Part shown: positions 32,185 through 59,725 of the stretch, piece by piece | How the letters are laid out: every line of letters begins with the position of its first letter | Numbering within the stretch: position 1 is the stretch's first letter | Assembly: GCA_964016885.1 (NCBI GenBank) | Contig: OZ024742.1 | Coordinates: 277,388,001-277,452,000, forward strand | DNA from: Eledone cirrhosa | Taxonomy: Eukaryota | Direction: 5' to 3' | Length of the DNA stretch: 64,000 nucleotides | Program-made: the position numbers and the translations under genes | The notes under the pieces: generated by a model | What the model was told of the DNA's origin: nothing | Databases searched by the model: none | What the model saw: the letters and a program-made list of their open reading frames with translations, nothing else

Positions 32185-33313
32185 GACCAGATAGAAAAAT
32201 GCGTACAGCAAAAAAAAAGTATATTGTTGGAAAATAAACCTTTAAAAATACAGGACAAGAAACTAAAATAAAACTTTAAAAGAATAGGACAAGAAACTAA
32301 GATTAATCTTTAAAGAATTGGACAAGAAACTAAGATAAAACTTTAAAAGAATAGGACAAGAAACTAAGATAAATCTTTAAATAATTGGACAAGAAATAAA
32401 AAAATTTACAATAATATTAGTGGCAATATTTTTATTGGTAAAAAATCGAGTTCCACATTCATAGTCTCTGGGTTCCACATTCAGAGGTCGTCGTCAGACC
32501 GGGGGATCATTTGATCCTGGTTTGAACACCAATTGGGCCATAACCAAACCCCTATTTCATCATTCGGCGACACGCCTCATGTGTCATGCATAATGTGAAT
32601 GGACCCATGGCCCCATGAGCACAGATCTTGAGCAGCAGCGGACGGTCTTGTCGTCCCGCTCATCCTTGATCTTGACCAACCCGTCCATCTTCTCCTTGAA
32701 TCTTGTCCTTGAGTTCAAGTCCGGCAGTCCAGATGAATGCATGCTACAGCTTTCTGGTACAGGAAGGGGGAGCAGGAGGACTGGAGGGATGACGGGACAG
32801 AGGGAGGGAGGACCGGTGGTTGAGGGAGGTGCCGTAGTCGGTGGTCAGAGTCGACATCTTGTCCCGGTCGTCTTCTCCATCTTCGTCTGGGGTTGCGGGA
32901 CCAGAAGTGCATTCTTGGAGGAGACCTGCAGCTGCATCGGCCAATTCTTCTTGCAATGGTCATTCTGACGGAGCAGAACTGCTCAGCCAACCAACCCCAA
33001 CCAGAACCAACCGCTCAGGGGCAACGCACAATGAGAGCATGACAATTATTATGCACTAATCAAGAAGATACTGGGGCATAGCACAGGAAACGAATAAAAA
33101 AATTTTGCCACTAATATTATTGTAAAATTTTTTATTTCTTGTCCAATTCTTTAAAGTTTTATCTTAGTTTCTTGTCCTATTCTTTTAAAGTTTTATATTC
33201 GTTTCTTGTCCTATTCTTTTAAAGTTTTATTTTAGTTTCTTGTCCTGTATTTTTAAAGGTTTATATTCCAACAATATTACTTTTTTTTGCTGTACGCATA
33301 TTTCTATCTAGTC
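32185..33313. mobile_element. Non-autonomous foldback-type DNA element with ~215-250-bp terminal inverted repeats built of ~34-bp subrepeats, enclosing a ~650-bp GC-rich interior
   Basis: GACCAGATAGAAAAATGCGTACAGCAAAAAAAAAGT... at 32185 is mirrored by ...ACTTTTTTTTGCTGTACGCATATTTCTATCTAGTC at 33313. GGACAAGAAACTAAGATAAAACTTTAAAAGAATA repeats occur in both arms; TACT lies immediately outside both ends. Confidence 0.8.
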
Positions 33314-35605: not shown

Positions 35606-35962
35606 GCGTCACGCTTACTATTCACTCACTTGAACACAAGATTTATCAGCAAACTTTGATTATAAACTTTTTCCCGCTGGACCAAATTTCTAGATTTTTA
35701 AGCCAAAAGATGCGTAATGATCTACTGTTCATGCTCATATAAGTTTTATCTCAGTTAAATAAAGTAGAGCCGCGCTGTACTGTCGTAAACAGACGATTGC
35801 CAACGAAAACACGACCACAACAATATTACTAGTCCGTTTAGGATTTAGGATTAATGAAACAATGTTTCGATTATGACATCATCACTATTTAAATTGTGAT
35901 AAGGACGCTTACAAATTGTTAGAAGAAGCAAAGAATAGGAGAATGGAGTAAAACTATTAGAG

Positions 35963-36034
35963 TTCCCATGCCGGGAATCGAAACCGGGCCGCCTGGGTGA
36001 AAGCCAGGAATCCTAACCACTAGACCACATGGGA
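35963..36034 (-). tRNA. tRNA-Glu(TTC), unit 25, B-box variant
   Basis: Consensus except CCGGTTTCGA instead of CCGGGTTCGA. Confidence 0.75.
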
Positions 36035-36160
36035 AGCCATTACTGAAGTGTCGATATAGTTCACTTTTAAATGTGACAATATATTAATAAACTGAAGAAA
36101 CTTGTACATATTTATAGATTTCTTCAATACGTTGCTTTACTAAAGATCGTCACCTATACG

Positions 36161-36232
36161 TCCTCGGTAGTATAGTGGTAAGTATCCCCCGCCTGTCACG
36201 CGGGAGACCGGGGTTTGATCCCCGCCGAGGAA
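36161..36232 (+). pseudogene. tRNA-Asp(GTC) pseudogene, unit 25
   Basis: Extra C in anticodon stem; T-loop reads GTTTGATC. Confidence 0.78.
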
Positions 36233-37167
36233 GTACATATAATTTCTACCTATGAAAGAACACATTTTTATATTTTTACACACATTCTCTCTTAGATGTT
36301 CAACATATCTTTCCAGAACGATCGGTCAATTTTTAACACTACACACGGCAACTACCATTTTCATCTGGCATTCTAGCATATTTAATTCTTTCCATTTTAC
36401 CATCGTCCCCTCTCTGTCAACTCAACAATCTCTCGTTTCGTTCATCTTCTCGTTGTCGTTTATACGAAATCAAAAATCAGCTTTTGCTTTCGATTACTCT
36501 GAAAACTTTCGGTAAAATATGTCTAGGAAAATATATCTAGGCAACAGAAGAAAATATGAGGTGGAAACTATCTTATCCTCCACCTCTTCGTCCCGACAGG
36601 ATGAAGAATATATTGCGCCGGGGGACCTTGAGGGAGACGCGCTGATAGAGCCAACTAAGCTCGGATAGCAGTGAGTGGGGTCCTGGCCCAGGTGCCAAGA
36701 ACGCCGGGAGTCTCCACTGCTACAGGTTCTAACACAACCTATGAGAAAGCAGACGATACTCGGGCAATCTGTCCTGTTCGGCGTGGCAAACAGCGAATCT
36801 GGTCTGGTAGCCGAACGCATCATGTAGCATGAGAGATGTGTGGCCTACCGCCACGGAACGGGAAGATTTTAATGCCGTCTGGCCGTTTGCCGTCTCTTAG
36901 GTCCAGTGGCACTCTCTCGAGCTAAGGCCATGAGCTTCGTTGAGTGTGTGCCAACATGAATGGAGAAAATGAATGAAACGAGAGATTGTTGAGTTGACAG
37001 AGACGGGACGATATTAAAATGGAAAAAATTAAATATGTTAGAATGCCAGATGAAAATGTAGTGCTAAAAATTGGCCGATGATTCTGGAAATATATGCTGG
37101 ACATCTGAGAGTGAATCTATGCAAAAATCTAAAAATGAGTTCCTTCTTAGGTAAAAAGGAATTACAC

Positions 37168-37240
37168 CTCCCCACGCGGGGAATCGAACCCCGATCTCAC
37201 GCGTGACAGGCGGGGATACTTACCACTATACTACCGAGGA
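37168..37240 (-). pseudogene. tRNA-Asp(GTC) pseudogene in inverted unit
   Basis: Asp body with anticodon-stem and acceptor lesions, 73 nt. Confidence 0.78.
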
Positions 37241-37388
37241 TGTATAGGTTGCGACCTTTAGTAAAGCAACGTATTGAAGAAATCGCTAGTGATATTTATC
37301 TACGAACGAAACCGTGCTTGTCAAGTTTCTACAGTTTATTATATTGTCACATTTAAAAGTGAACTATTTCCTCATTTCAGGAATGGCT

Positions 37389-37455
37389 TCCCATGTGGTC
37401 TAGTGGATTCCTGGCTTTCACCCAGGTGGCCCGGGTTCGATTTCCGGCATGGGAA
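37389..37455 (+). pseudogene. tRNA-Glu(TTC) pseudogene in inverted unit
   Basis: TCCCATGTGGTCTAGTGG[5-nt deletion]ATTCCTGGCTTTCACC... Confidence 0.82.
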
Positions 37456-38896
37456 CTCTAATCGCTTTACTCAATCCTCCTATTCTTCTAACAATTTGCA
37501 AGCGTCCTTATCACAATTTAAATAGTGATGATGTCATAATCGAAACATTGTTTCATTAATCAGTAAACTTGTGCAATATTTCAACTCTCTATGTAGACAA
37601 TAACTTTTCCCGTCCATGGGAAATACTTACAACCAATCAATCTTTTGAAATGTATTCTTCTCTGATATCTTCGTTATATGAAATCAAATATCAGCTTTTG
37701 CTTTGGATTACACTGAAAACTTATGGTAAGATATCTAGGCAGCAGAAGAGAAATATGAGGTGGACACTATCTTACCCTCCGACTCTTGGTCCCGACAGGA
37801 TGAAGAATATAATGCCCCGGGGGATGGTGACGGAGATGCGCTGGAAGGGCCACTCCACCTGGTGGGCTTGCAGCTTCGCGCAGCCGACTAAGTCCGATAG
37901 CCGTGAGTGGGGGCCGTGGTCCATGTGCCAAGAACGCCAGAGGTCTCCAGTGCTACTCGCTCTACCACAAACCTATGAGAAAGCGGTCGATACGCGGACA
38001 GTTTGCCATGTTCGTCGTGGCAAACAGCGAATTTGGGCAGTTAACCGAACGTATCATGTTGCCGCTAGAGAAGGTTCCGCATCATGTAGCATGAGAGATG
38101 TGTGGCCAAACGGCATTGAACGGGTAGACTATGATGCCGTCTGGCCGTTTGCCGCCCCCTAGGTCCAGTGGCACTGTCTCGAGCTAATGCTATGAGTTTC
38201 GTTGAGTGTGTGCCAACATGAATGGAGATTTTTGGAGAAAATGAATGAAACGATAGATTGTTGAGTTGACAGAGATGGGACGATAGTAAAATGGAACGAA
38301 TTAAATATGTTAGATTGCCAGATGAAAATGTAGTGCTAAAAATTGGCCGATGATTCTGGAAATATATGCTGGACATCTGAGAGTGAATGTATGCAAAAAT
38401 CCAAAAATGTGTTCCTTCATAGGTAAAAAGGAATTACACCTCCACGGCGGGAAAACTTAGGGTAAGATATGTCTTTGAAAAATATCTAGGCAGCAGAAGA
38501 GAAATACGAGAATGAAGAATATATTGCGCCGGAGGACGGTGAGTGAGACGCGTTGGAAGAGCCACTCTACTTGGTGGGAGGCTTGCAGCTTCGCGCAGCC
38601 AATTAAGCCGTGAGCGGTGACGTTGTCTGGGAGCCAAGAACGCCGGAGATCTCCACTGCTACAGGTTCTAAAATAAATATATCAGAAAAAGCCCGGTACT
38701 CGGACAGTTTGCTCTGTTCGGCGTGGCAAACAGCGGATCCTAGGCTGGTAGCCGAACGCCCCATGTTGCCGCTAGAGAAGGTTTCGAATACACCGAAAAC
38801 TTCCGTAGGTAACTTGAACACTTTATTATGTCAAATTACAGAAAATCAATGAATTTAATATTTAGTCGAACTTTCGGAAAAAGAATGTAGAACTAT

Positions 38897-38927
38897 AAAT
38901 AATAATAATAACAATAATAATAATAAT
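38897..38927. repeat. (AAT)n microsatellite at the 3' end of Tx1 element A
   Basis: Direct reading. Confidence 0.95.
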
Positions 38928-39170
38928 GCTTTCTTTATTAACCACAAGGGTTTACATAAAGTAGACATTAAGGACAGTACAGGACAATACAGGACAGTAC
39001 AAATGGGCATTTCTGCGTGTAAAAAAACAGAGGATGTAATAAAAATAACAATGAAAAATTCCCCAATAGGGGGAGACTTCCGAGGGACATTTGTGGAGAA
39101 AGCCCATTAAAAGGCCACAGTGACCCTGACCACCAGGGCAACTGCCCTCTCCCAGTTTTCCACCTTTAAT

Positions 39171-42100
39171 TTACAGACACATACTCAGAGTACTTGCTTC
39201 TCTCACCCATCTTTCAACAAAATGCTGGGAAGAGAGCACTTCCCTCTCTACCCTGATTTTCCTTTTCAAATGAAATTTGAAAAAGTTAATCAGGGCATCA
39301 CCGAAGAGGTAAGTGCTCGTCTTCAGCCCTTTCAAATGTGTCCACCATACTATCTCTTTCGCCATGGCCACCAGACAGATAAAAACTGCCTGCACTTCCC
39401 GGCTAAAGGAAGAGGGCGGGGAAATCCTCACGATGGACTCAGCTGATAGCTGGATCCGTCCTATACCTGACAGCAGGTGTTCGACATAAACCCACAAGTC
39501 AGCAATGCTCGGACACTGGAAGAGTGCGTTCAGGACGGTTTCGTCGCTCTGCGCGCATCTCGGACATTCCCGGCTGACGGCACCTCCATGCCTGTAGAGT
39601 TTATCCCGAATTGGCAAAGCTCCTCGGTAGTACTACCAGGCCAGGGATTTCTGGAAGTTGTACATAGGCCCTGGCCCGAAAGTCCTTCCGAAGAGATTGG
39701 CTAGTTGATTTTCGTCGACGCCTAGAGTTTCTCCAAGTACGTCGTCGCTCTTCCTCTCTACTAATCCTCTATAGAACGCCAAGGTGGAGTTTCCACCGAT
39801 CACATTGCCCGATTGGTCGAGGGCTGTGAGCGCCTGAAGACATTCGAGTCTCCAAGCGCTCCCTCTCGGTCTTCGCTTGACCCAGGACTGCAGCTCCGTC
39901 AAGGAGACAAGCTGGGGAAAAACGTGTCTAGCAAACGGCGACCACACCTGATCACCATCGAGGAAGAGGTGGAGATGTCGTAGCCTGAGCGCGTGTCTGC
40001 GCATCATCAGCCACGGCATGCCCAGCCCTCCACGTAGCGGGTGTTGACAACAGATGGACCACCTGACCATCGGAGCGCGTCCCTTCCACAAAAAGCGAAA
40101 GAACAAACGCTTCAGCGCAGTCAGGCGGGGCTTAGGACAAGGTACGACGGTCAGGCAGTAGTAGATGACGGACGCGATGTACGCGTTAGCCACCTCCGCT
40201 CGACCTTTCAGGGATAGCTTCCTTTCCGCCCATTTCTGGGTGAGAGAAGCCACCCTGCACGTCACCTCGTCCCAGTTTTTGTCCGTCAGGAGGTCCGGAC
40301 CGAACCAGACCCCTAGCAATTTAACCGGTCCGTCCGTCCAGCGCCCGACGACGCTGTTGGACGGCATGCACCTGCCTCTCCAGGTGCCGAGCTGCAGGCC
40401 CACTGACTTTTCCTGGTTGGTCATGCTCCTGTCACCGCTTCGTATTCTCTTAGTGTAGTGCCGATCGCCTCGATGTGTTTGGCGTTCGACACCACTACGG
40501 TGATATCGTCCGCATATGCTGACACGGATCTTCCGCATCCTAGTTCGCGCGGGACCTCCCTCAGCGTCTCCAGTTTGTGCAGTAATGGCTCGAGAGTCAA
40601 TACGTACAAGAGGGACGAGAGGGGACATCCTTGGCGGACCGAGCGCATGATGTTGAGCGGTTCCGAAAGGTGACCGTTCACTCTCACTACAGAGCAGATG
40701 TCGCTGTGCATGGCAGCAATCCAGCCTCTGAAGACGGGCCCAAAGCCAGCCGCCCTCAGGACTGCCGCTAGATAACGATGGTCGACCCTATTGAAAGCTT
40801 TCGACTGATCTAAATTGATCAAGGACCCACCCATGCCAGGTTCCCTAGCTACCCTCTCTACGATGTATCGCATGAGGTGGAGGTTGTCGTGGATGGATCT
40901 GTTGGGAATGGTTCACGTCTGCGCCTCTATCACCAGACCACCAACCTCTTTGCTAGCACCTTGGCCAAAATCTTGAACTCTGTGTTTAGCAGAGTTATGG
41001 GCCTGAAATTATCTATGTTATCCCCCTTGTTCGGATCCTTTCTCAGCAGCGCCACAGCTCCTCGGCTCACAGAGCTGGGAATTCTCCCGTTCTGTTGCCA
41101 GTTGCAGCAGACGTCCGCCAAGAGGCCTCTGAACAAGTCTGGCATCTGTACGTAAAGTTCATAGGGCAAACCATCCAAACCAGGCGATTTACCCCTTGTG
41201 CTCCAGTCATTGCCTCCCGTACTTCAGCGGCTGTTATCGGCTTTTCGCAACACTCCGCCTCAGTGACCGAGAGCCGCGGCAGTCCGTCGAGGTAGACACT
41301 AAAGTCCATCCCTCGATCCGGCCCGCCGCTGCCCCCGAACAGCTGTGCGAAGTGTCGCTGAAAAGCTTCACACATTTGCCCGGGATCGAGTAACATGCGC
41401 CCGTCGTGGTCCACTAAAGACCGGATCGTGGCTTTGTTGTCACGACGCGCCACCGCCACTCGGGCCCACTGAACGGCTTTCGTCCCCTCGGGTCTGAGAG
41501 TACGCACCCCAGCTCTGATAACGCAGCCTTCGTGCTTTGCATTGAAGAATTGGTCACGGGCCAATTTCGCCGCAAGTACGTCGGTCGCGATGCCTTTGCT
41601 AAGCGCCTCGTCTAATTTTCTAACTAATTCTCCCTCTGCTCTATTTTTCTCTATTGCTAAAGCCTTACTAAACCTAATGGACTCTATTCTAATTGCTCTT
41701 TTCAGAGAAAACCACCACTTGTTGTTGACGATGGCCCCCGTCAACGCCCGCTTAACTAGTTCGCTAATCAGGTCTCTGTAGGCCTTGCGCGCTGGTAAGG
41801 ACGCGTTTAGCTTCCAGTAGCCGGGTCCTCGTCTATGAAGCCTATCTAAGTCAAGCACACAGATCACGAATTTGTGGTCCGTGTAGCTGACTATCTTGAA
41901 TTGTTGACAGCCTATGCTAGACTTATCTATTTCCCTACAGAATACTCTATCTAGATATGATCTGGATGACCCTATGCGATTTGTCCAAGTCCACATTGGC
42001 ACATTCGGGAAATCCAATCGGTACCTGTTAGACAGTTCAAAACGCCTGAGCAGGTTGGTGAGGCTTTTGCACCCTCCTCCCCTATCCGCTGATCCCACAC

Positions 42101-42554
42101 AGTCCCAGCGTGCATCTAAGATCCAGTTCCAGTCGCCCACTAACACTAAAGAGCGGGATGTTCCAAGAAAGGTCTCCAGACGCCGGAAGAAATCAGGCCG
42201 CCCTGCTCCTGTCGGGGCATAGACGGCCACTAGCCTGAAAGCTTGCTCGTCTCCGCTGGTCACGTCTAGAACCACCAACTTACCTTCTGGGTCCAGGAAG
42301 ATGGCCCGTATGGCGAGATCCAAACTTCTCCGAAAAAGCACAGCAACTCCTCCCCTCGATCTCGGACGGCTGGGAGATGCGTACATATCGTAGCCGCCGA
42401 AGATCGGTGCGAAGGCTCGTGCTTCGGAGATTCTGGTCTCGCTGATGGCCACTACATCTATGTTTAGTGACCTGAGGTAGTTGAGCAGGTGGCCTTGCTT
42501 CCATGACGACCCCAAGCCACGCGCATTTATGCTGCCTATTCTGAGTGAGGTCAT
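39171..42554 (-). pseudogene. Element A ORF2: AP endonuclease + reverse transcriptase + C-terminal zinc finger, broken into several frames
   Basis: SINARGL, SETR, VYAP, GDWN, YLDRV, YTDH (APE); DGLPYE, NFRPITLLNTEFKILAK, LDQSKAFNRVDH, RQGCPLS, AYADD (RT); CPRCAQSDETVLNALFQCP. Confidence 0.93.
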
Positions 42555-42588
42555 GTTGAAATGGAGTGGAAAAGATGGGAAAGACCAC

Positions 42589-44422
42589 TTACCTTACTTC
42601 TCGTTGAGGAAGGATGGTTTCTCCATGCTTTTCACTGCTTGTGGCCTCCTTCGGAAGGATGTCCTTATAAATCCTCCTGGAGAGTGTTTGTCGGAAGTCT
42701 CCGATGTCTTTGGGGAATTTTTGTTTTAGTGTCGTGTACGTTTTCTGTCTGATGCGAGTGATTTGTATGTGTGGAGGTGGTGTGAACTTTTGGGTTGCTG
42801 TGTAGTCTTTTTCTGTGATGCTGGTGTTGTGTTGGATGTATAGTAATAATTCGTTGTTGTTCAAATTTAATGCTGTGTAGTGTGTATCGTTTTGGTTGTT
42901 TTGTTTTGTTTGCGTTTGTTGTGGGTTTGTTTCTGTTTCGCTTTTTGGTGACTTTTGTGGGGTTGGTGATGGTGGTGTTGGGGTTAATGATGGTGATGGT
43001 GTTGGTGTTTGTGGTGATGGGGTTGGTGATGCTGGTGTGGATGGTGGCATATCTGTCCTAACTTTTTTGTTTGATAGTTTATTTGTTTCCCTCTGTATTT
43101 TGTTTTTGGAGGGGGAAGGAAGAGAATTTTTTTCTTTTTTGGTTTCTTTTTCTTTTTTTCTTTTTTCCTGATATCGTTTCCCACTCCTCGTCGTCACAAT
43201 CTGTCTCCAGTTGCGATAGGTCTGGGAGTGGAAAATCCTCCACAGGCGTTGGTTTTGGATGTGGCGTGGTGGATGGTGTAGGCGCTGGTGCTAACTCTGG
43301 CGCGTTGGGTGGTGGTGGTGTTGGTTTTGCTACTGTTGCTGGGGTTGTTGCTGTTACAGTTGCTTCTGTTGTTGCTGCTACAGTTGTTGCTGTTATTTCT
43401 GCTGCTGGTGGTGTTGATGGTTGAGTCACTAGGTGGGTAAGAGAGGTGGCCTCAACCTTTTAGCCTGAGGGCAGAAAGCCCTTAGCTGGGTTCCTTCACC
43501 ACAAACGACACACCTAGGCCTTCTGCCCTCGACGATTACGGTGAGGTGGCTGCCGTCAGTGAGGTCTATTACCTCTGGGATCTCCTCAATGCTTTTTTGG
43601 TCCGCTTGGATCAGGAGCTCCATCCCAGATCCGGACCAGTTCTCCTGCTTTTCTTTCGCTATTTCGATTATCTTTGAGTTGACCTCGATGCCGGCGAGGA
43701 CGGCAGCCATTAGCCAGGGAATTTCGATGGCCGGTGGAACGTGGGTCACCCTGATCTTCACGAGTCTCTGGCCACAATAGCTTGGGACGAGTGTGAAGTC
43801 GTCACTTCTTAATGGGGCCATGGAGTGTTCTCTAGCCTCCTGTGGTGTTTCAAAGAACACGTCCACGGTTCCATATTTCTGCCCACGTCTGATGTGGGTT
43901 TTTTTTTGCCCACACATGTCCCAAAGCTTTTTGGATTTGGGACTCGGATGCCCGTTCCACTCGGCGCGATTTTATGTTAATCGTCCGATAAGACACGGTG
44001 CATAGGCGCCGATGCTCCATTTTATTAGGTGTGTGTGTGTGGGGGGGGGGGGGGTTGAGGCTGACCCTGTACCCATCTTTCTTTACCATTCTTTTGGCTT
44101 CTTCTAATTCCTCCTGAGTTACCTGGAATGCTTCGCACTTTTTTGCTACTCTGGCAAAAGACAGGGTGGTTTTCTTAATTGCATTGTTGCTGTTGTTGTT
44201 ATCGTTATTTTTGTTATTGTTAATTTTAGTTTCAGTTGTGGTGGTGGTGGCGTCAGTGGTGTTCGGTGTGGAAGAGTTCATTTTGGGTGAATTCATTTCG
44301 ATATCACGAGATAATTTATTTTTTTCTTTTGTTTCTGTTGTCGCTGTGGTGGTGGTTGGGGTGGCGGCTTCAACACCTGCAGTCATTGGTAATGGCGGGA
44401 AATGAATGTCTGCCTGAGACAA
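42589..44422 (-). pseudogene. Element A ORF1 (gag-like; T/N-rich N-terminus, degenerate zinc knuckle, P/T- and K-rich C-terminus), frameshifted
   Basis: ORFs 43850-44422, 43429-43917 (EGRRPRCVVCGEGTQLRAFCP), 43079-43429, 42589-43197; homologous to element B ORF1. Confidence 0.8.
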
Positions 44423-44754
44423 ATTTAAAATATTGCTACTGCTTATATTTTTAGTGTTGGCAAACGTAGTAATATTTACAATGGCGGTGTCGGTGTGAGG
44501 TGTTAGTTTGTGAGGAAGGTGTGACTCTGAGTCGTCTATGATTTTTTCAAAGAAAAATCTTTTGTTTGATAATTATAAAAGTTTAAATTTTGGGCTCAAG
44601 GCCCCACTCTTTTTGAGTGTCCTTTTCAGATAACAATGTATGTGCACTTATATACAGTCAACAATAAAATTTTCCATAAATGGCAATTTTAAACAACTAA
44701 AAATAACAAACCTTTGCGGAGCTCACGATAATACGATTTACTACGTAGGTCGCC

Positions 44755-44806
<52 letters not shown>

Positions 44807-44811
44807 GTAAT
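44755..44811. repeat. (AAT)n microsatellite
   Basis: Direct reading. Confidence 0.97.
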
Positions 44812-45031
44812 ATTGTCATAGGCGCACTAGGGACTATCTCAAAAAGTTTCCAGGGATGGTTAAAGAAAATTGGCCCCTTCACGCTTTTTGGAACGCTTCA
44901 AAAGGCATGCTTGCTGGGAACAGCAAGAACCCTCCGATACGTCCTGAATATCTGAGGCTGCAGGTAGTGGCTTGATATTCATTTCAACAAACTTTCCAGT
45001 TAACTAACATCAATGACTGAGACTCAAAGAG
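44812..45031 (+). mobile_element. 5'-truncated R4/Dong-clade RLE retrotransposon (last 47 codons + 3' UTR)
   Basis: IVIGALGTISKSFQGWLKKIGPFTLFGTLQKACLLGTARTLRYVLNI* (stop 44953-44955) matches the R4/Dong C-terminal pattern PIVIGALG...LQKA.LLGTARILR.VL; flanked by (TAA)n on both sides. Confidence 0.85.
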
Positions 45032-45038
45032 TAATAAC

Positions 45039-45095
<57 letters not shown>
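45032..45095. repeat. (AAT)n microsatellite
   Basis: Direct reading. Confidence 0.97.
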
Positions 45096-45443
45096 TTCAT
45101 TTATTGGCCACAAGGGCCGATATATAGGGGACAATACAAAAGACTGGGGCAGTGGGGTTTTACAGAAACATCGAGTAAACAATATGAATAACAATAACAA
45201 AGTAACAATAAAGTAACAATAAAATTACAAGAAAAAATTCCCAAATAGGGGGGATGACCACCTAGGAGTCGCTCAGGTACCCCAACAGTCCTGAACGACC
45301 CGACGCTTCGAGAGCACCCTGGAAGGGCACCCCTCTCCTCCTCAAATTTACCTACCTACAGCCGCATGACCAGGGTAGCCCCACTCACGGGCCATTCTCC
45401 CCACATTCACCCACCTTTCAGCAAATGTACTGGGGAGCAGCAC

Positions 45444-48400
45444 TTATCTCTCCACCCTCACCTTCCTTTCCAAGTGAAACTTGAAAAAGTTGATGAGGGA
45501 TTGGTCGAAGAGAAAAGTGTCTGTCTTCAGTCCTTTCAACCTCGTCCAACATACAACCTCTTTCGCTACTGCCACCAGACAGAGGAAAATTGCCTGCCCT
45601 TCCTGGCCAAAAGAAGGCGGCGGGTCGATCTTCACTATGGACTCGGCCGATAGTCGGTTCCGTTCTACAAGCGACAACAGCTGTTCAACATAACTCCACA
45701 AGTCAGTAATGCACGGACACTGGATGAGTGCGTGCAGAACGGCTTCGTCGCTCTGCGCGCATCTCGGGCAGGTCCGTCTGACAGCACTTCCGTGCCTGTA
45801 GAGTTTATCTCGAACCGGCAGTGCCCCCCGGTAGCACTGCCAAGCGAGGGATTTTTGGAAATTATCCATCGTCCCCGGCTCGAAAGTCCTCCGGTACAGA
45901 CTGGTTAGTTCGACTTCGTTGACTCCCAGAGCCTCTCCGAGTGCGTTGTCGCACTTGCCCACCACTAATCCTCTATAGAACTCGAGAGTGAAAGTTCCAC
46001 TGACCGCATTGCCCGCCTGGTAGAGGGCAGTGAGTGCCTGGCAACATTCCAGATGCCAGTCACCCAGTCTCGGTCTCTTCTTGACCCAGGACTGCAGCTC
46101 AGTCAAAGAAACGAGCTGCGGAAAGGCCCGTCTGACAAACGGCGACCACACTTGTTCACCGTTTAAGCAGAATATCTGGAGATGCCGCAGCCTCAGCGCA
46201 TGCCTGCGCATCATTAGCCACGGCATGCCCAGCCCTCCACGTAGAGGGTGCTGGCAGCAGATGGACCGCCTCACCAGCGGAACCTGACCCCTCCACAAGA
46301 ATTTGAAGAGGAGCCGCTACAAGATGGCGAGGCGCGAACGGGGTCAAGGGACGACGGTCAGACGGTAGTAGATGACGAACGCGATGTACGCGTTCGCCAC
46401 CTCCGCCCGACTTTTCAGTGATAGGTTCATCCCAGCCTATTTCTGGGTGAGACTGGCTACCCTGCCCGTCACCTCATCCCAATTCTTATCCACCATGAGG
46501 TTTGGCGCGAACCAAACCTCTAGCAACCTTACCGGTCCGTCCGTCCAACGCCTAAAGACGCTGTTGGACGGCATGGACTTGCTTCTCCAGGTGCCGAGTT
46601 GCAAGCCCACCGACTTTTCCGGGTTAAGTTTTGCTCCCGTCAACCTTTCATATTCCTCCAATAAGTTGCCGACCACCTCGATTTCTGAGGTGTCCGACAC
46701 CATCACGGTGATGTCGTCCGCATAAACCGACACAGCCTTTCCGCGTCCCGGTTCGAGCGGGATGCCCTTCCGCAGAGTCAATACGTACAGAAGGGAGGAG
46801 AGAGGGCACCCTTGACGGACCGATCGGGAGACCTGAAACGGTTCCGAGAGGTGGCCATTAATTTTGACCATCGAACAGGTGCCGCTGTGCATTGCAGCGA
46901 TCCAGCTTCTGAAGACGGGGCCGAAGCCAGCCACCTTGAGGACAGCCTCCAGGTACCGATGGTCGACCCTATCGAATGCTTTCGATTGATCTAAATTGAT
47001 CAGAGCCCCACCGAAGCCAGGTTTACACACTACCCTCTCTATGATGTATCGCATTAGGTGGAGGTTGTCGTGTATGGACCTGGTTGGGATTGCGCAAGTT
47101 TGCGCTTCCCCAACCAGATCCCCGACGACAAGCGCCAACCTCTTCGCTAACACCCTGGTCAAAATCTTAAGCTCAGTGTTGAGCAGAGTTATGGGCCTGA
47201 AATTGTCTAATGTGTCCCTCTTGTTCTCGTCTTTCCTTATCAGCGTCACTACGCCCCGGCTTACAGAACTGGGAATACTCCCGTTTTGCTGCCCGTTGCA
47301 GTAGAGGGCTTCGGGGAGATTGGAGAACAAGTCTGGCATATTTACGTAATGCTCGTAGGGCAGACCATCCAAACCGGGTGACTTGCGCCTCATGCAGCCG
47401 ACAAGGGCATCCTGAATCTCGGCTGAAGTAATTGGCCTTTCGCAGTGCCCAGCGTCAGCCGTCGAGTGTTGCGGCAAGCCATCGAGGTAGGGACTGAAGA
47501 CCGCCACCATCTCTGACCCGCCACTTCCCCCGAACAACCGAGCAAAATGTTGGCGAAAGGCCTTACACATCCTCTTGGAATCGCTCAGCTAGTTTCCCGT
47601 CTCGGTCCGTCAAAGACCGAATCGTGGTTTTATTACCACGCTGCGCCTCTGCCACGCGGGCCCATTGAACAGCTTTGGTTCCATCGTTTCTCAGAGCACG
47701 CGCCTTAGCTCTGACAATGCAACCTTCGTGTTTCGCATTGAAGAAATGGTCTAATGCCATTCTCGCCGCTAGCACGTCAGTTGCAATGCCACTACCAATA
47801 GCCTCGTCTAACTTATCTACCAACTCCTCCTCCTTTCTATTTTTCTCTAACGCTACTTCTTTGCTAAACTCTATCAACATTACTCTAATCTCTCTTTTGA
47901 GAGTCCCCCACCATCTATTGTTGACGACACCCCCTGTCAACTTTTTCTTAACTAAATTGTTGACCTGGTCCCTGTAAGCCTTACGTGCCGGAAATGACAT
48001 GTTTAGCTTCCAGTAACCAGGTCCTAACCTACGCGTCTTATCTAGGTCGACCATACAGATCAGAAACTTGTGATCTGAATAGGCGACCGTTTCAAAACGT
48101 CGACAGCTTACACTGTTTCTGTCTATTTTCCTCATGAATATCCTGTCTATATACGATCTAGACGACTCTATGCGATTAGCCCATGTCCACACTGGCGCAT
48201 TAGGGAAATCTAATCGGTACCTGTCAGACAGTTGGAACTGGCTGATCAGGTTCTTGAGGCTTTTGCACCCCCCGCTCCTATCGGATACTCCCACAGTCCC
48301 ATCGTGCGTCTAAGATGCCGTTCCAGTCCCCCGCTAACAGTAAAGGGCGAGACGTACCCAGAAAGGCTTCCAGGCGTTTAAAGAAGTCCGGCCATCCTGT

Positions 48401-48748
48401 CCCAGTAGGAACATAGACGGCCACCAGTCTAAAGGCACCACCTTCGTTATTGTTCACGTCCAGGACCACCAACTTCCCGTCCGGATCCCGGAAGATCGAC
48501 CTTACCTCGAGATCCAGGCCTTTCCTAAACAGCACTGCCACCCCACCTCCCATTCCCGGCCGGCTAACAGATGCAATGATCTGATAGTCGTCGAAAATGG
48601 GGGCTAGTGCGCGCGTGTCGGAAATCCTGGTCTCGCTGACGGCAATTACATCCATTTCTATAGACCTGAGGTCGTTGAGCAGGTGACCCTGCTTCCAGGA
48701 CGATCCCAGGAATCGAACATTTAAACATCCTACTCTTAATACGGTCAT
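45444..48748 (-). pseudogene. Element B ORF2 (APE-RT-zinc finger), frameshifted
   Basis: CLNVRFL, SETR, GDWN, YSDH; KSPGLDGLPYE, NFRPITLLN, LDQSKAFDRVDH, RQGCPLS, VYADD; CPRCAQSDEAVLHALIQCP. Confidence 0.93.
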
Positions 48749-48757
48749 GTTGGCAGG

Positions 48758-50710
48758 TCAAAAAGAGAGAGAGGAAGGTTTACTTACCTTCCGGGCTCTT
48801 GTGAAGGTCGGGTTGTTCGACCTCCATAGTTGGTGGGGTTTCTTTTGCGAACCCCTTGAAGTGGGTTTTACGTTCGGGGTTCCCACGTCCCGAGGAAAGC
48901 TGTCTCGTATTTCTTTGAATATATCGAGCGACATTCGCGCCAGAACCAAATCTTCCGGCACGTGAAATGTGCTCGATTTAAAAATGTCCCCCTCTTTTTG
49001 TATATTTTCACTTCGAGCTACGAGGGCCATCAGTTCCTTGTTGGCCCTCCTGGCGAGCACGAGTTTTGTATGTTTTGTTGGTGTGATTTTATTTGTTTGC
49101 GTGGCTGTGGTGGTGATGGTTTTGGTGGTGTTGTTTCGGTTGTATCTGTGTTTGTTGTGAGTGCGGTGTCTATGGTTTCAGATGTTTGTGTGTATATTTG
49201 TTCTTGCGTCTGTTTAGGTTGTTTGCGTTTGGGGGATTCTGGTGATGGTGATGGTGGTGTTGATGTTGATGTTATTGGAGAGATGTTTGCGTGGGTGGTG
49301 TCTGCGTGTTTTATTGTGGGTGATTTTGTGCTTTGTTGAGTTTTTTTTTCTTTTTGTGTTTCCTTTTTTGTATTTTGGGGGATTTTGGTTTTCCCTCATC
49401 TTCACTACTGGTAGATGAGGGGTCTGTGTCTGTAAGTGTGTCTGTATGTATGTTTATGGTTTTATTGGTGTGTATTTTTTTGGGGGGGGGGGGGGATTTG
49501 ACAGCTTTCCTCGTTTCCCCCCTGGGTGGTCAATGTTGGTGGTGGTCTTTCTATTGGTGTTGTTGTTGGTGGTTTTGCCGGTGCTGGTGTTGGTTGTGGT
49601 CCTTGCCCCGGCGTCGGCAGCAGTGGAACCTTTCGACCCCTTGACTCTTTCAGCAGTTGAGGGCAGAAAGCTCGCAAATGGGTTTTTACCCCACAAACAA
49701 AACACTGTGGCCTTTTGCCTTCGGTCATAATGTGAATGAATGTCCCATTATGAAGGCGGGTGTGGTCCGGGATTGTCTTCATATTCTCGGGCCTGATCTG
49801 GAGAAGGATCTCCAGGTCAACCCCGGACCAGTCCTCTCTGGTCACTTCTATAGGGACGGTATCCGTCCCCTCCACAATCACACATCCCAGAAGCCACCAC
49901 ATGTCAAGTCCTGGTGGGATTCTGGGAATGCGGAGACGGGCCGTTCTTTTTCTCATGTGGGAGGGGTACATTATGACCTTACTGGTTTTGCAAGGAGTCA
50001 TAGCGTGTTTCATAGCGAGGGCTTCTGACTTGAACAACACCGAAATGGTGCCGTACTGTCTGCCCCTCTCTATGTATTCGGTGTCTTCTCTGATGCACCT
50101 CAGCGCGACTTCGACATCTTCTTGTGGGATTAAAGCTGCCCTTTTGGTTTGTGCTGAGATGCATCTATAATGCACCGTTCTGCGCTCCACTGCCTCAATA
50201 GCTTCTACCGGGACAGTTAAGTTGGCCCAGGTTTGCTCTTGCCTGATGAGCTTCCATGCCTGGGCCAACTTTTCATCTTTGTTTGAGAGGTCCATGTTGA
50301 AGCATGGCCTCTTTTTTGCTGCTGCCGCAGCGAAAGTGTTCTTCTTGTTTTCGTTGGGGGTGTTGTGGTCGTTGTCGTTGTTCTTGTTGCTGTTGGTGTT
50401 AACACTGTCGCTGTTATCATTGTTGCCACCGTTGTTCTCGGTGCAGTTGGTATTGTTGCTGTTGGTGTTGTCGCTATTTGTTTTCATGTTAGTGGTGTTG
50501 ATATTGTTGTTGTATTTGTTATTTTTTTTTTGTTATCTGTATTTTCGTTGTCGCTGTTACTGTCATTTTTTTTCAAAATTAGAGTTCTCATTGGTATCAT
50601 TGGTGTCTTTGTTTACATTGTTTGTGATGGTGTTTGTGATATCAATTTGCGTTAATTTCGCTGTAGCGCTCCTCTCAACTTCCACGTCGTTGTCGCACGA
50701 CAGCAGACAT
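48758..50710 (-). pseudogene. Element B ORF1 (gag-like, CCHC zinc knuckle), frameshifted
   Basis: ORF 49462-50487 contains EGKRPQCFVCGVKTHLRAFCP (CX2CX4HX4C); N/T-rich N-terminus; downstream fragments extend to 48758. Confidence 0.8.
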
Positions 50711-50942
50711 ATCGCGGGGGGGGGGGGGGGGGCTCAACCATGTTTTTTTTTTCCGTAAATGTTTTAACATGTAAAAAAAATTCAAATATTTGGGCCAAAA
50801 GGCCCAAATATTATACTTTCCCCTTCACAGGGCAAAGTCTAAGGGCTTATATTCCTTACACAAGAAATATTTAACAACAAATAATTTTAATAGGCAAATA
50901 AAGCGACTTACTGGGAGCGAGCAAAATACGTCCGCTTAGACC

Positions 50943-50969
50943 AATAATAATAATAATAATAATAATAAT
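50943..50969. repeat. (AAT)n microsatellite
   Basis: Direct reading. Confidence 0.95.
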
Positions 50970-51381
50970 GATTTCTTTATTGGCCACAAGGGCTGATATC
51001 AATAAAAACATTACAGGCGGCACAGGACGGTACGATGTGGGTTTTGTGCGTGTAAAGATTTTTATTATTTATATAAGAAAAGAAAAAAAAGACATAGAAA
51101 CATCATATATATATAAACAATAAAAATAAAAATTGAAACAATGAAAAATTCCCCAATAGGGGGAAACCTCCGAGGGTTACTCGTGGCGAAAACCACACAA
51201 AAGACCACGGCCATCCTGACCGCCCTCTCTCAATTTTTCCATTTCTCAAACTACAGGCGTATATTCAGAGCGGTCCCGTTCACTCGGACCTTTCTCACTA
51301 CATTCACCCACCTTTCAACAAACTTGCAAGAAGGCAACACTTGCCTCTCCATCCTGATTTTCCTCTTCAAGTGAAACTTGA

Positions 51382-51382
<1 letters not shown>
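50970..51382 (-). mobile_element. 5'-truncated Tx1 element C (last ORF2 codons FKFHLKRKIRMERQVLPS..FVERWV + 3' UTR)
   Basis: Homologous to the 3' ends of A and B; (AAT)n on both sides. Confidence 0.88.
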
Positions 51383-51414
<32 letters not shown>

Positions 51415-51415
51415 T
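51383..51415. repeat. (AAT)n microsatellite
   Basis: Direct reading. Confidence 0.95.
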
Positions 51416-51545
51416 GTTTCTATTTTTGGCACAAGGCCAGCAATAACCCAGTACATTACTGGTACTTTATTTTATAGACCCCGTAAGGATGAACGGCAAA
51501 GTTAACCTCGGCGGGATTTAACTCAGATCATAAAGGGACGAATGA
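51416..51545 (-). mobile_element. SINE fragment (central GCCTTTCATCCTT..GGGTC.ATAAA-type core, Meta-domain-like, plus 3' tail)
   Basis: Related copies at 52572-52730 (-) and 59567-59725 (+). Confidence 0.7.
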
Positions 51546-52161: not shown

Positions 52162-52571
52162 AGTGAATCATGTCATCATGATTTTCTACATCGGAAACTC
52201 GTCTTTTTTGTGTGTGTAGGGGTATTAACGTGGGACAAACAACTGATATGTAGAGTTATCCTACGAAGTTAACCAGTTCCAGTGTACTAAGAATATAGAC
52301 ATCTCTTATGTGCGACACTATGATTTCTCGCAAACGAAACGCATGAACCTTGTTTACCTAATTACACTTTCATTATGTATTCTCTGTGAGTTATTTCCCC
52401 TGATATTTTCTTGCGGGTATTTACAATTACTGCTCAGATATTTGGCCTCATAAATCACCGACAATCTTGGGATCAAGCCGTTGCTGAACCTCCGAAAAGA
52501 GTCGGAGAACTAAATTGACCCCCACCTACCCACCTTATCAAAGTTAGAACTAAATTAAAACAGAAAATAAT

Positions 52572-52730
52572 GGTTTCTTATTTAGGCACAAGGCCAGTAA
52601 TTTTGGGGGAGGGGAAAGTCGATTAAATCGACCCCACTTCGATACTGGTGTTTTATTTTATCGACCCCGTAAGTATGAAAGGCAAAGCTAACCTTGGCGG
52701 GATTTGAATTCAGAACGTAAAGGGACATAA
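52572..52730 (-). mobile_element. SINE fragment (same family as 51416)
   Basis: TTTATCGACCCCGTAAGTATGAAAGGCAAAG..GGGATTTGAATTCAG; tail GGCACAAGGCC. Confidence 0.72.
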
Positions 52731-54905: not shown

Positions 54906-57216
54906 TATATATAAAAATTTTAATCTTTTAAAATCAAATTGATTAGGGTTAAAGAATTTACAGCTGCATTGCTTTTCTTCGCAGATAAATATATTTCTTT
55001 TGCGTTTGAAGTATATGAACAACCATTTGAGTAATGTTACGTGATAGAGTACTTAGCACAGAGATCAGAGTCACTTCATCATGACTGCTACTTCTCCATA
55101 TTGAGAGATCACAGCTCTGATACTATGGGCATGTGGTTAGAATGTCACAGGAAAGAATAGCTGGACAGATTTTATGGGCAAAACCAACCAGCATGAGTAG
55201 ACTCTGAGCAAGATGGTTGGATAACATCCATGGGCTCGGCTGGTCTCACTTGGGGATCCAGCTGGATCAATTGAAAACCGTTGCTTCTGACAGGACTTGC
55301 TGGAAGGAGTGTTTGAGGACTCTGCCTCCATGATCCTCTCAGGAATAAGTGGATGAAGAAGATGAAATGTATAAACATATTTCGTTTACATTCGTAATTA
55401 CATCTGCATCCTTAAAAAACTGAAACAGCAGCATATGAAATTTTCATAGTTAAACAGCTAATGCTTTTGTTAACCCGTTAGAATTTACATTATATATACT
55501 ATTGTATTTTCAAGGTAAAGGCTTTATCTCACATAATATCGAATCTGAGATTTTGATATTTATTTTTATATTAATAAAGTACCAGTTATGTACTGATATA
55601 ATTGCTGGCCTTGTGCCAAAAGTAGAAACATTTATTTTGTGAACAATACCTTAACATCAGTATAAGTGGTTGGTTTGAACACAAAGAGGTGAGAGAATCC
55701 TGGCCGGATACAGTCGGTTTAAATGTTAAAGGATTAAAGCAGAGATTATTACCTTGCTTTTGCAAAACTGAACCCTTTCATTACCCTATTTCTAATGAAA
55801 ATAGACAAGAAAGCTGGTGGTTAGAACAAAACTTTACTAAGGTTCTTACATAATGGAAGATTTTAAAAACATTTTTGTATCATAGAACCAGTAGTTAAAT
55901 GTTGTTTTAAGTATCAATATGGCTAAATAAAGCTTTGCAATGAAACAATTTACACAAACACGATTGAAAGCGTTACTGTTAGAGAAGGTGAATTTTATGG
56001 AAAACATGTCATTTGGCCATTCACTTTTGCTACTTCGATTCCAGTGGCATTTGCAAAAACAGTGCATCTGACTGTCTAGCATTGAGGAAAATGTGTCTGT
56101 TCTGTCTAACTGACCTATTTATGTATGAACAGTAAATTCTGTAATAGTCAATTTAGACATTTTTTAAAAATACACACAAAAAGTATTAAATTTCTTTTTC
56201 ATTTATTATTATTTTCATTAAACTATTTGTGACCTGGCCACTGACTTGATTTTACACTTGTAATGACCAGGTCACCATATGATGAAAATTTTGACACCAC
56301 AAAATGAATGTAAGGTGAATTTGATAGTTTTTATGCGTTTTTAATGGCCAAAATCATTTGTCATGGAAGTACAACTTAGAAATTGTATGTAGTTTTGTTA
56401 AGAACTACATGAGGTATATAACAATTTCAGATAAATATTATATGAATTTTACAGCTGAATGTACATAAGATACGTGAACGAATGCATACATGATCTGGAA
56501 TATAAAGTAGGATGGTGTTCTGTTAAAAAACAGAAGGGAACGACAATTAAAGTAAGGTAGACAATACATCTGGTAGAGAAGGTATATTTTATTTTATTGA
56601 GAGGTGACTTTTAAAGGACTAGTTTTGTTTCACCACTATTGAAGTTGAAGAAATATTTTCTATTATGGTTTATGTAATTTATTTGAAAATATAACAACTC
56701 TACAGTAATGTAATCACTGATTGAAGACAAATACATTTCTCAGCTATTTGCCCACAATGATAAATAAATAGTGTCTTTTCTCCTTTCTAGAAATTTCTGA
56801 AAGAATCATTGCCATCATTTATTTCCGTTTTTCCTTGTTAGCAAGTGTTATATATGAATATTCTGAAAGAATGCTTTTATCAAAAATATCCCATTGATGA
56901 GTTCACCTCACTAATGAAGATACATGTGTAGTTAAATAAAATACTGTTGAGAGGTTATTACACTGTTGTTATCTTATATGTGAGAACATCTGTGGTAAAA
57001 TAATACTTTTTTTCTCAGAAAGCATATTGAAGTAATAGTCATTCATCATTATCGTTTTATGTCCATGTTCCATGATGGCATGAGTAGGATGAGTCATCAC
57101 ATTCTGTTTGAAAAACATATTTTGTGAAAATGATTTAGTACAGGTATGAGAGGTGTGACTTTTCTCCTGTGCCACTATGCTTGTATTTAATTAAATTGCA
57201 TTTTTAAGTGTTTGAT

Positions 57217-58485
57217 TCACCACAAATGTGATTTTTCTCTTATATGAATTTGTTTGTGTCTACTTAACCTACCCTTTACAGAGAATGATTTACCACAAAT
57301 ATCACAGTGATATGGTTTATCTCCTGAATGAATACGTTTGTGAGTAATTAGGTCACTATTTCGGGAGAATGAGTTACCACAAATATCACAGCGATATGGT
57401 TTATCTCCCACACGAACGCATTTGTGAGAAGTTAAATAACTTCTTCGAGAGAATGATTTACCACACATATCACAGAGATATGGCCTTTCTCCTGTATGAA
57501 TACGTTTGTGAGTTGTTAAGTGACTATCTATTGAAAATGATTTACCACAGATATCACAATGATATGGCCTTTCTCCTGTATGTATGCGTATATGTTTAGT
57601 TAAGCTACATGTTACAGAAAATGATTTACCACAGATATCACAGTGATATGGCTTTTCTCCTGTATGAATACGTATGTGAGTGGTCAAAACACTACTTTGA
57701 GAGAATGATTTACCACATATATCACACTGATATGGTCTTTCTCCTGTATGAATACGTTTATGAATAATTAAGTTACTACCTATATTGAATGATTTACCAC
57801 AGATATTACAGTTATATGGTTTCTCTTCTGAATGAATATGTTCAGGAGTAGATATTTTATCAATTTCAGAGATATCCCAGTTGTCTGGTTTAACTCCTGT
57901 ATGAATACGCTTGTGAATAGCCAAATTACTACCTGTAAAGAATGATTTACTACACACATTACAGTGATATGGCCGCTCTCCTGTATGAGTGCATTTGGGA
58001 GAAATTGAGAGGACTGTTGCTGAAAATGATTTATCACAGATGTCACAATATGGTTTATCTCCTGTATGAATATGTTTGTGAGCAGTTAACTCACTACTTT
58101 GTGAGTATGTTTTCCCACAAATATCACAGTCATATGGTTTCTCTCCTATATGAATACGTTTGTGACTAGTTAAGTTACCACTTTCAGAGAATGTCCTTCC
58201 ACAGATTTCACAGTGGTATGGTTTCTCTCCTGTATGAATACGTTTGTGAGTATTCAAGATGCTATTTTGAGAGAATGATTTATTACAGATATTACAGTGA
58301 TATGGTTTCTCTCCTGTATGAATACGTATATGTCTACTGAGGTTACTTTTTTTAGAGAATGACTTTTTACAAATATCACAGAAGTATGATGTTTTTACTA
58401 CCTGTTTCTGTATTTCATCAGGAAAATTAATCGTTTTAGAGTTTGTTTCATATTTAATTTGATCCTCATATAATTCAGTTTCCAT
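57217..58485 (-). CDS. C2H2 zinc-finger protein, 422 aa, single coding exon; 11 canonical fingers plus 3 degenerate units
   Basis: Repeated [11 protein letters not shown]....[10 protein letters not shown] units in an uninterrupted ORF; short acidic N-terminus, no KRAB-like domain evident. Confidence 0.93.
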
Positions 58486-59566
58486 ATTTTTCTTCTTTCA
58501 CCTATAATATACAGATATTTTTCTTGTTAGGTTTATCATTTGGTTCCAAACTGTACTTCCACAGAGTGTAATCTTTATCAATACCTGAAGATAGTGTTAT
58601 TCGTCATTTACAAAATGATTTATTATATGACAATCCTTTCATATAATTACTCTATGATGAATTATTACAATAAAAGCTGGTCTTTAGGAGCAAAAGGTAA
58701 TGTAAAACGCTTTGTGAAGACATATATCCACATATAAAATTTGTTGCAGAGAAGTCAATTAGATATTCATGGTAAATTTGTCCAAATTTAATTGGAATGT
58801 AAAATTATCTTGTATATATTCCAGACAGTGAAGTAAAGAGATGTTGATATTAATTTCAGATTGGAAAAAATATTTCACAGTAGTTCAATCATAAATTCGT
58901 ATATAGTTTTATTTGTTCTTTAAAAGATGATAAATACTGTTGATGCATATGAAGGAAAGAATTATTTTATGCCAAAGTCATCTGATAATCTGAAACAATA
59001 AAGAATCAGCATAAGATAGTGAGAATACTTAAAAAGTAGAGATTCAACCGTGGAAATTTTACATTTCTACATTTGATAACGATAGATATAAACATTTAAA
59101 TTTTACTACTTATTTTTATCAAGCATCATACAACATTGCATGAGGTTTTCATACTTGCAAATTACACAGGTACACTTTTAGATTGTCTACCATAATAGAT
59201 GTTAACCTACAGAAAACGGGCCATAAAAAATCAGTTTAGCCCTCATACAGCAGACCTATCAAAACTGTTCCAGACATGAGCAGCCATAGATAGAACTATA
59301 TCGTTATCCAATGTATCCTTCATTTTTTAAGATAATAGATTGTGATTTGGGGATATGTTGGCTTCAGAATAGTGAAATATAAAATTCTTGTTTCTCCACA
59401 GATATTTGTTGTTGTTTTGTCCCAGTTCAGCCCAGATGCAGCAAATTGATGATCAAAAGCATTCCAGCTGGGACTATCACACCTTATATTAAGACAGTGT
59501 GTCTAAGACTATATCATTCTCAAATATGTCCGCCTTATTTTTTGACTGTGGTATGAACTGAATATA

Positions 59567-59725
59567 GGCGGCGAATTGGTAGAATCGTTAAGACGTTGGA
59601 TAGAATGCTTTACGGTATTCGTCCCACCTCATTGCGCGCTCTGAGTTCAAATCTCGCCGTGGTCAACTTTGCCTTTCATCCTTTCGAGGTCGATAAAAAA
59701 TGTACCAGTCCAGTACTGAGGTCAA
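59567..59725 (+). mobile_element. tRNA-derived SINE (head plus core)
   Basis: GGCGGCGAATTGGTAGAATCGTTA (A-box-like), GAGTTCAAATC (B box), GCCTTTCATCCTTTCGAGGTCGATAAA core. Confidence 0.75.

Follow-up and report, generated by a model that had tools for sequence, protein, structure and literature searches.

The retroelement stack of the analyzed window

We analyzed a 64,000-nucleotide stretch of the Eledone cirrhosa genome (contig OZ024742.1, positions 277,388,001 to 277,452,000 of the forward strand; hereafter the window), in which long interspersed nuclear elements (LINEs) of Tx1 type, designated A, B and C, are stacked on tracts of an (AAT)n microsatellite together with a Dong-like LINE and a short interspersed nuclear element (SINE). 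The stack begins with (AAT)10 containing one AAC (38898-38927), which forms the 3′ flank of element A, a full-length but frameshifted element of 5827 bp on the minus strand (38928-44754). The 5′ end of A is separated by (AAT)17 with a short degenerate end (44755-44812) from the 5′ truncation of a Dong/R4-like element of the restriction-like endonuclease (RLE) type, of which the final 46 codons and the 3′ untranslated region are left (219 bp, plus strand, 44813-45031). A (TAA/AAT)21 tract (45032-45095) is common to the 3′ ends of this remnant and of element B, a second full-length, frameshifted Tx1-type element (5847 bp, minus strand, 45096-50942). The 5′ end of B is joined by (AAT)9 (50943-50969) to the 3′ end of element C, a 5′-truncated copy of a third subfamily (412 bp, minus strand, 50970-51381), and the 5′ junction of C is joined by (AAT)11 (51382-51414) to the 3′ end of the SINE (minus strand, 51415-51540). 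The SINE is also 5′-truncated, belongs to an abundant kind of ~180 bp, and ends in TGGC-CTTGT-GCCA and a purine-rich run. Beyond it the stack extends by one more member, a LINE 3′ end with a short ATT tail adjoining the SINE 5′ end (minus strand, 51541 to approximately 51810), which is CR1/L2-like as judged by a motif.

On direct reading, the order, strands and junctions of the stack were as given in a preliminary description of this DNA, and no unique sequence lies between its members, as had also been stated. The window contains six runs of at least four AAT units, all of them tracts of the stack. The element start ATT-GG given in the same description holds for A (ATT-GGCGAC) and B (ATT-GGTCTA), but it is not universal: a young subfamily found elsewhere in the genome, designated Y, starts with ATT-GACG.

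Structure and classification of the Tx1-type elements

Elements A and B each comprise two open reading frames (ORFs), with apurinic/apyrimidinic-like endonuclease (APE), reverse transcriptase (RT) and zf-RVT domains interrupted by frameshifts, and are 74% identical over ORF2. In A, ORF2 (APE-RT-zf) starts at about position 42557 and a degenerate CCHC knuckle of ORF1 lies at 43471-43512; the knuckle of B is at 49663-49704. The zinc knuckle CX2CX4HX4C occurs in ORF1 of B, Y and the sister families Z2 and W (described below), and its histidine is replaced by glutamine in the window copy of A. An ORF1 with a CCHC zinc knuckle is a feature of the Tx1 clade. ORF2 carries a C-terminal zinc motif, CPxC..H..C, and the Pfam domains Exo_endo_phos, RVT_1 and zf-RVT were matched in the window pieces and in intact ORF2 of Y and Z2. 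The 3′ end of A forms a hairpin, AACC-CTTGT-GGTT, without poly(A), and that of B the hairpin GGCC-CTTGT-GGCC.

Subfamily Y, identified by protein search, is 85-86% identical to B and has many open frames of 1150 amino acids. The intact 1150-aa ORF2 has the layout APE-RT-zf, and its best match in the PDB is L1 ORF2p (E 1.9e-54, compared to 6.8e-22 for R2). Longer copies of subfamily C are 79% identical to A and 75-76% identical to B/Y. The RT is closer to that of L1 than to those of the RLE clades, which places A, B, C and Y in the L1 group by sequence; the name Tx1 reflects their anatomy and this similarity, and not a phylogeny that includes named Tx1 families.

Several further observations were made on these elements. 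A splice-donor-like motif, AGGTAAGT, lies at the end of ORF1 of A, about 40 nt upstream of the ORF2 ATG (42587-42594, minus strand), and upstream of ORF2 of B (48782-48789, minus strand). The succession of this word, a pyrimidine run and the ORF2 ATG is kept in 6/6 families though the flanking sequence is not, and the word is present too at loci L134 (intact Y), L295 (intact Z2), L400 (intact W) and L402. Young Y copies form head-to-tail arrays with (ATT)5-6 as the sole spacers at C1:181.41 Mb, C1:423.36-423.38 Mb and C2:264.52 Mb (loci L143, L144, L150, L135 and L147), and of 20 Y loci that were identified through the 3′ end and then extended, 19 retain the 5′ end. At the young Y locus L136, no joint across the element was found in contigs of four runs, joints at repeats having been discarded. 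Other conserved-looking heads follow (ATT)n at L046, L094, L183 and L189 and may represent more ATT-targeting subfamilies.

Genome-wide association with (ATT)n

The genome was searched with the ATT-free 5′ ends of the elements, which gave 2385 first-look candidates for A and 1598 for B; 40 of each were scored and 30 fetched, the examined copies being the best-scoring matches of each search. The sample of Y comprised 39 copies, one of the 40 fetched loci (L268) being unlike Y and therefore excluded. The 5′ flank was (ATT)n in 29/29 other A copies, 29/29 other B copies and 39/39 Y copies, and in 96 of these 97 full-length copies ATT stood in phase at the junction. Every one of the 39 Y copies began ATT-GACG. 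As a background, 200 kb of evenly spaced sequence was used, in which 0.13% of positions have (ATT)3 no more than 12 nt upstream and 2.8% have (ATT)2; it holds 6 tracts of at least four units.

The possibility that most copies have 5′ flanks other than (ATT)n, which had been raised in the preliminary description, is therefore not borne out for any of the 97 A, B and Y copies examined. Its proposal of at least two diverged (ATT)n-targeting subfamilies is likewise supported.

Truncated copies were collected by their 3′ ends and were cut within 1.5 kb; 33 were scored and one (L429) was removed as full length, leaving 32. At their 5′ ends, (ATT)n was strongly enriched over the background but less strict than in the full-length copies: (ATT)3 occurred within 12 nt in 15/32 and (ATT)2 in 20/32. 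By subfamily, (ATT)3 was present in 11/15 truncated copies of A, 0/3 of B and 4/14 of C; (ATT)2 was found in two of the three B copies, which are a duplicate pair. In one further truncated A copy (L033) the tract precedes an inverted 5′ piece, another (L038) has a 9-nt ATT-like duplication, and in 5/14 truncated C copies the junction is preceded by element sequence, these five being probably internal rearrangements. At the 3′ side (n=101), (ATT)3 was found in 83 copies, (ATT)2 in 9 and less in 9, with poly(A) in 0/101.

Neighbors in the stacks and the Dong-like element

Across the 97 5′ tracts lay a Tx1 3′ end in 38 cases, a SINE 3′ end in 17, a reversed Dong-like element in 8, a CR1-like tail in 2 and nothing recognized in 32; the tract was thus joined to another retroelement in 65/97 full-length copies. 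The 32 copies without a recognized element across the tract and the strong enrichment among truncated copies argue against the tracts being merely the 3′ tails of neighboring elements. A second script counted 39 Tx1 neighbors; 23 belonged to another family and 16 to the same one, which indicates that most stacks are not tandem duplications. That such a stack propagates itself, as previously suggested, is plausible. The enrichment over the genomic supply of tracts, put at 33,000 to 196,000, is only crudely bounded.

The Dong-like fragment of the window matches, at 94% identity, the terminal part of an intact ORF of 1141 aa (L283) identified by protein search. This single ORF encodes an RT and a C-terminal PD-(D/E)xK endonuclease, and its best PDB match is R2, including the RLE stretch. 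Among 14 truncated Dong-like copies inspected by eye, 12 have TAA at the 5′ junction, one lies reversed in ATT and one has neither. The Dong-like family thus shares these tracts but faces the other way, in agreement with the earlier suggestion that APE-type and RLE-type elements converge on one target. At L217, a Dong-like copy lies in reverse, and both of its ends carry (ATT)n on the sense strand.

Sister families and their endonucleases

Related elements stacked on (ATCT)n were encountered at a background locus (L123). In these ATCT families, (ATCT)n is found at the 3′ ends and at many truncated 5′ ends, and a minority occupies CAATA-like sites. Family W occupies a pyrimidine-rich degenerate minisatellite with TATATCWA-like sites. 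The ORF2 of Z2 and W is intact, and the ORF2 proteins of Y, Z2 and W comprise 1150-1159 aa. A metagenome scan for relatives yielded 26 loci, with an identity of only 24-39%.

All families and a protein of Argonauta hians, which is the closest named match (70% identical over the RT region), form one clade with a support of 1.0 in an RT tree whose other members are unnamed relatives. Within the tree, the ATCT families nest beside B/Y (0.989). The identities of the endonuclease, thumb and C-terminal regions set the ATT families apart and so conflict with the RT tree on the ancestral target; in this comparison the C-terminal value of B was ignored, since it was probably taken from a neighboring A copy.

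The endonucleases are 70-89% identical among the ATT families, compared to 57-62% between these and Z2/W (ATCT/minisatellite). The differences fall within and close to the betaB6-betaB5 loop, which has been linked to L1 selectivity; this loop aligns with those of the Xenopus Tx1L and human L1 endonucleases (PDB 2v0r, 1vyb) and reads WTNRIGSSRS in the ATT families and WSNRSG(S/T)SRS in the ATCT/minisatellite families. The sister families in (ATCT)n or the minisatellite have diverged endonucleases, which points to the endonuclease as the determinant of the target. The scaffold and catalytic motifs are those of the Tx1L and L1 endonucleases (PMC1950540), although the loops of both the ATT and the ATCT/minisatellite families are unlike that of L1 or the Tx1L graft.

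The SINE and the shared 3′ hairpin

The 3′ end of every LINE family is formed by a 4-bp stem that encloses CUUGU or CUGGU, after which comes a purine-rich run. The 3′ end of the SINE has the same hairpin layout with the stem pairs reversed (GGC/GCC compared to xCC/GGx). In an alignment of 9 rows, 89% of cells are paired and 3/4 pairs covary; slid controls scored lower, and the score was reached by 0/500 shuffles, although the rows are hand-picked and related, and relatedness can inflate covariation.

The fetched loci contained 74 SINE copies of full length, and 58 of these join ATTAT. Outside pure tracts, duplications of at least 10 nt were found in 24/50 copies, compared to a mean of 1.3 in shuffled pairs; the target duplications are 10-21 nt long and start with ATTAT. 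In the 200-kb background, 19 SINE copies with an intact 3′ end were counted, 12 of them within one 10-kb stretch. The head of the SINE contains A- and B-box-like words by eye, and an Rfam search with one full copy gave no match.

The shared covarying hairpin and the duplications starting with ATTAT make the SINE a likely, if looser, non-autonomous passenger of the Tx1-type lineage, as judged from these sequence features. Alternatively, it is moved by another LINE, either an ATT-tailed CR1/L2-like element or an RTE element, and its 3′ end resembles that of Tx1 by chance. The shared stretch is indeed just ~25 nt, the sites are looser (50/74 copies lack (ATT)3 at the 3′ side), and the small set of chosen hairpin rows fits such an explanation as well. 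We nevertheless consider it unlikely, as the loop, the spacing to the junction and the orientation are the same as in Tx1 while the stem pairs are reversed, the duplications far exceed the shuffled expectation, 58/74 copies start with ATTAT, and no such hairpin is evident by eye at the CR1-like 3′ end.

A SINE lies in ORF1 of a B copy at L085, with an 11-nt duplication starting with ATTAT, and the B element of the window near 49960 represents the empty form of this site. More SINE-like pieces akin to that of the stack were noted in the window at 52563-52726, 55573-55636 and 59637-59728.

Proposed mechanism of insertion

Together, these data argue that A, B and C belong to an L1-group LINE lineage, Tx1-type by anatomy, that inserts into (ATT)n throughout the genome, likely by APE nicking of the (AAT)n strand and priming there; we assign this reading a probability of about 0.85. 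APE-driven target-primed reverse transcription is established for L1 (PMC1950540). In the present case, the ORF2 protein would bind its own RNA at the 3′ hairpin, the endonuclease would nick the T/A step of 5′-AAT^AAT, and a few AUU bases at the end of the RNA could anneal to the freed primer (cf. L036). A staggered second nick would then copy part of the tract and leave a tract on each side of the insertion. The new tracts could in turn become targets for any ATT-Tx1 family, for the SINE (probably relying on the Tx1 ORF2 protein) and, in opposite orientation, for the Dong-like RLE element, and so could the ATT tails that SINEs and CR1-like elements carry.

Duplications of about 9-20 nt are visible at imperfect targets. 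L038 has a 9-nt ATT-like duplication with 5 nt of microhomology (9-14 nt), L280 carries an 18-nt interrupted tract on both sides of the copy, and the sister-family loci L339 and L361 show duplications of 16-22 nt. The RNA probably served as template for a few bases of the 3′ tract.

Several observations weigh against insertion into pre-existing (ATT)n as just described. The examined copies are no random draw, they include likely segmental-duplicate pairs (L007/L009, L064/L065 and L416/L424), and the background rests on only 6 tracts. The truncated copies are far less strict than the full-length ones, subfamily C (4/14) being the least strict, and part of the full-length 5′ tract could therefore be RNA-derived. 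Finally, at L279 and L281 an interruption of the 5′ tract has no counterpart in the 3′ tract, which means that the duplication was limited to about 9-11 nt, or that the 3′ tract was templated.

Alternatively, the ATT tracts would belong to the element, its RNA beginning and ending in (AUU)n of the donor locus, so that a short AT-rich site suffices for insertion. This would account for the contrast between nearly perfect full-length copies and truncated copies of which about half are flanked, for L036, which lies within another A copy and shows AT at the 3′ junction where the host has CC, and for L002 and L006, which carry only (ATT)3 after a different repeat. However, truncated copies cannot bring a 5′ RNA extension and yet 15/32 adjoin (ATT)3, L038 and L054 show a plain duplication with hardly any 3′ tract, and 65/97 5′ tracts are attached to older elements, all of which makes element-borne tracts quite improbable. 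Loose insertion followed by survival or tandem duplication mainly in ATT-rich repeat piles, with no active targeting, fits the head-to-tail arrays of Y and the 9/39 upstream neighbors of Y that are Y, but it can be virtually dismissed in view of the in-phase ATT junction in all 39 of the youngest copies (99% alike), the 23/39 Tx1 neighbors of another family, and the sister families occupying different repeats of the same genome, which passive survival does not predict.

Comparison with known target-specific elements

Target preference has been recognized where >20% of flanks share a sequence (PMC4494074); here, the proportion is 96/97 for full-length and 15/32 for truncated copies. Microsatellite-specific Tx1 families include Kibi in (TC)n, Koshi in (TTC)n and crocodilian families in (TTCC)n/(TTTC)n (PMC4494074, PMC3812793). 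Like these, the octopod lineage comprises APE-type elements inserted in a microsatellite, with the repeat on both sides. It is set apart by targeting (ATT)n, by its sister families on (ATCT)n and on a minisatellite, and by its invertebrate host. The (TC)n or (TTC)n target of Kibi and Koshi is not that of the copies studied here; the A copy at L002 follows (TTC)n yet joins it via (ATT)3. Dong, of the R4 clade, targets (TAA)n (PMC3812793, PMC7998251), that is, the same microsatellite, and a Dong-like family with an intact RT and RLE ORF shares the tracts in E. cirrhosa. In contrast to Dong, the A, B, C and Y elements have an N-terminal APE and two ORFs, and face the opposite way, with ATT on the sense strand.

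For crocodilian SINEU, mobilization by the target-specific Tx1-Mar has been proposed from a shared target preference (PMC4494074). The pairing of a SINE with a target-specific Tx1 through a matching target is similar here, but SINE and LINE also share a structured 3′ end and the target is a microsatellite, not Mariner. A word search of the available text of a review of 58 SINE-LINE pairs found Tx1 mentioned in two passages only, and the literature searched, as far as its text was available, contained no octopus SINE paired with Tx1.

Annotations of Octopus vulgaris list L1-Tx1 and Dong-R4 as both abundant (PMC13282606, PMC8967140, PMC9115989), and one describes them as recently active, with 13 L1-Tx1 families (PMC13282606). 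No target analysis was found in the available parts of these papers, the word "target" occurring 0 times in that of PMC13282606. Likewise, no (ATT)n-targeting Tx1 was found in the available text of the literature searched; Repbase, which may list one, was outside its scope. Microsatellite-targeting Tx1 elements and a TAA-specific Dong are already in print, and the radiation of targets and the likely SINE partner are extensions.

Other features of the window

Window positions 1-32186 and 35849-38782 are occupied by a tandem array of 1.34-kb units, about 24 in number and 97% alike, each unit bearing a tRNA-Glu(TTC) and a tRNA-Asp(GTC) on opposite strands; degenerate and inverted units continue up to the stack. 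Dewa-like targeting of this nearby tRNA array was considered and dropped, as AAT tracts are absent from the array unit and none of the flanks read was seen to contain tRNA-array sequence. Inverted 34-bp minisatellites (32234-32401 and 33135-33267) around ~1.1 kb resemble a small terminal-inverted-repeat element at the edge of the array. On the minus strand, an open exon of 426 aa with ~12 C2H2 zinc fingers lies at 57217-58497.

Implications

Viewed more broadly, and only tentatively, octopods may harbor a Tx1-type lineage with endonuclease variants directed to (ATT)n, (ATCT)n or a minisatellite, with intact young members, with Dong converging on (AAT)n, and driving a main SINE of the genome through a shared 3′ stem-loop. 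Such a Tx1-SINE pair would be stringent, and the endonuclease variants would form a natural series of APE specificities, neither having been described before. The intact, related ORF2 proteins of Y, Z2 and W, which have different genomic targets in one genome, make it directly testable, by domain or loop swaps, how APE endonucleases gain and switch sequence specificity. That an APE and an RLE element converge on a single microsatellite while facing opposite ways could explain how retroelements pile up locally in a 3-Gb genome. For a very abundant SINE, a likely autonomous partner can now be named.

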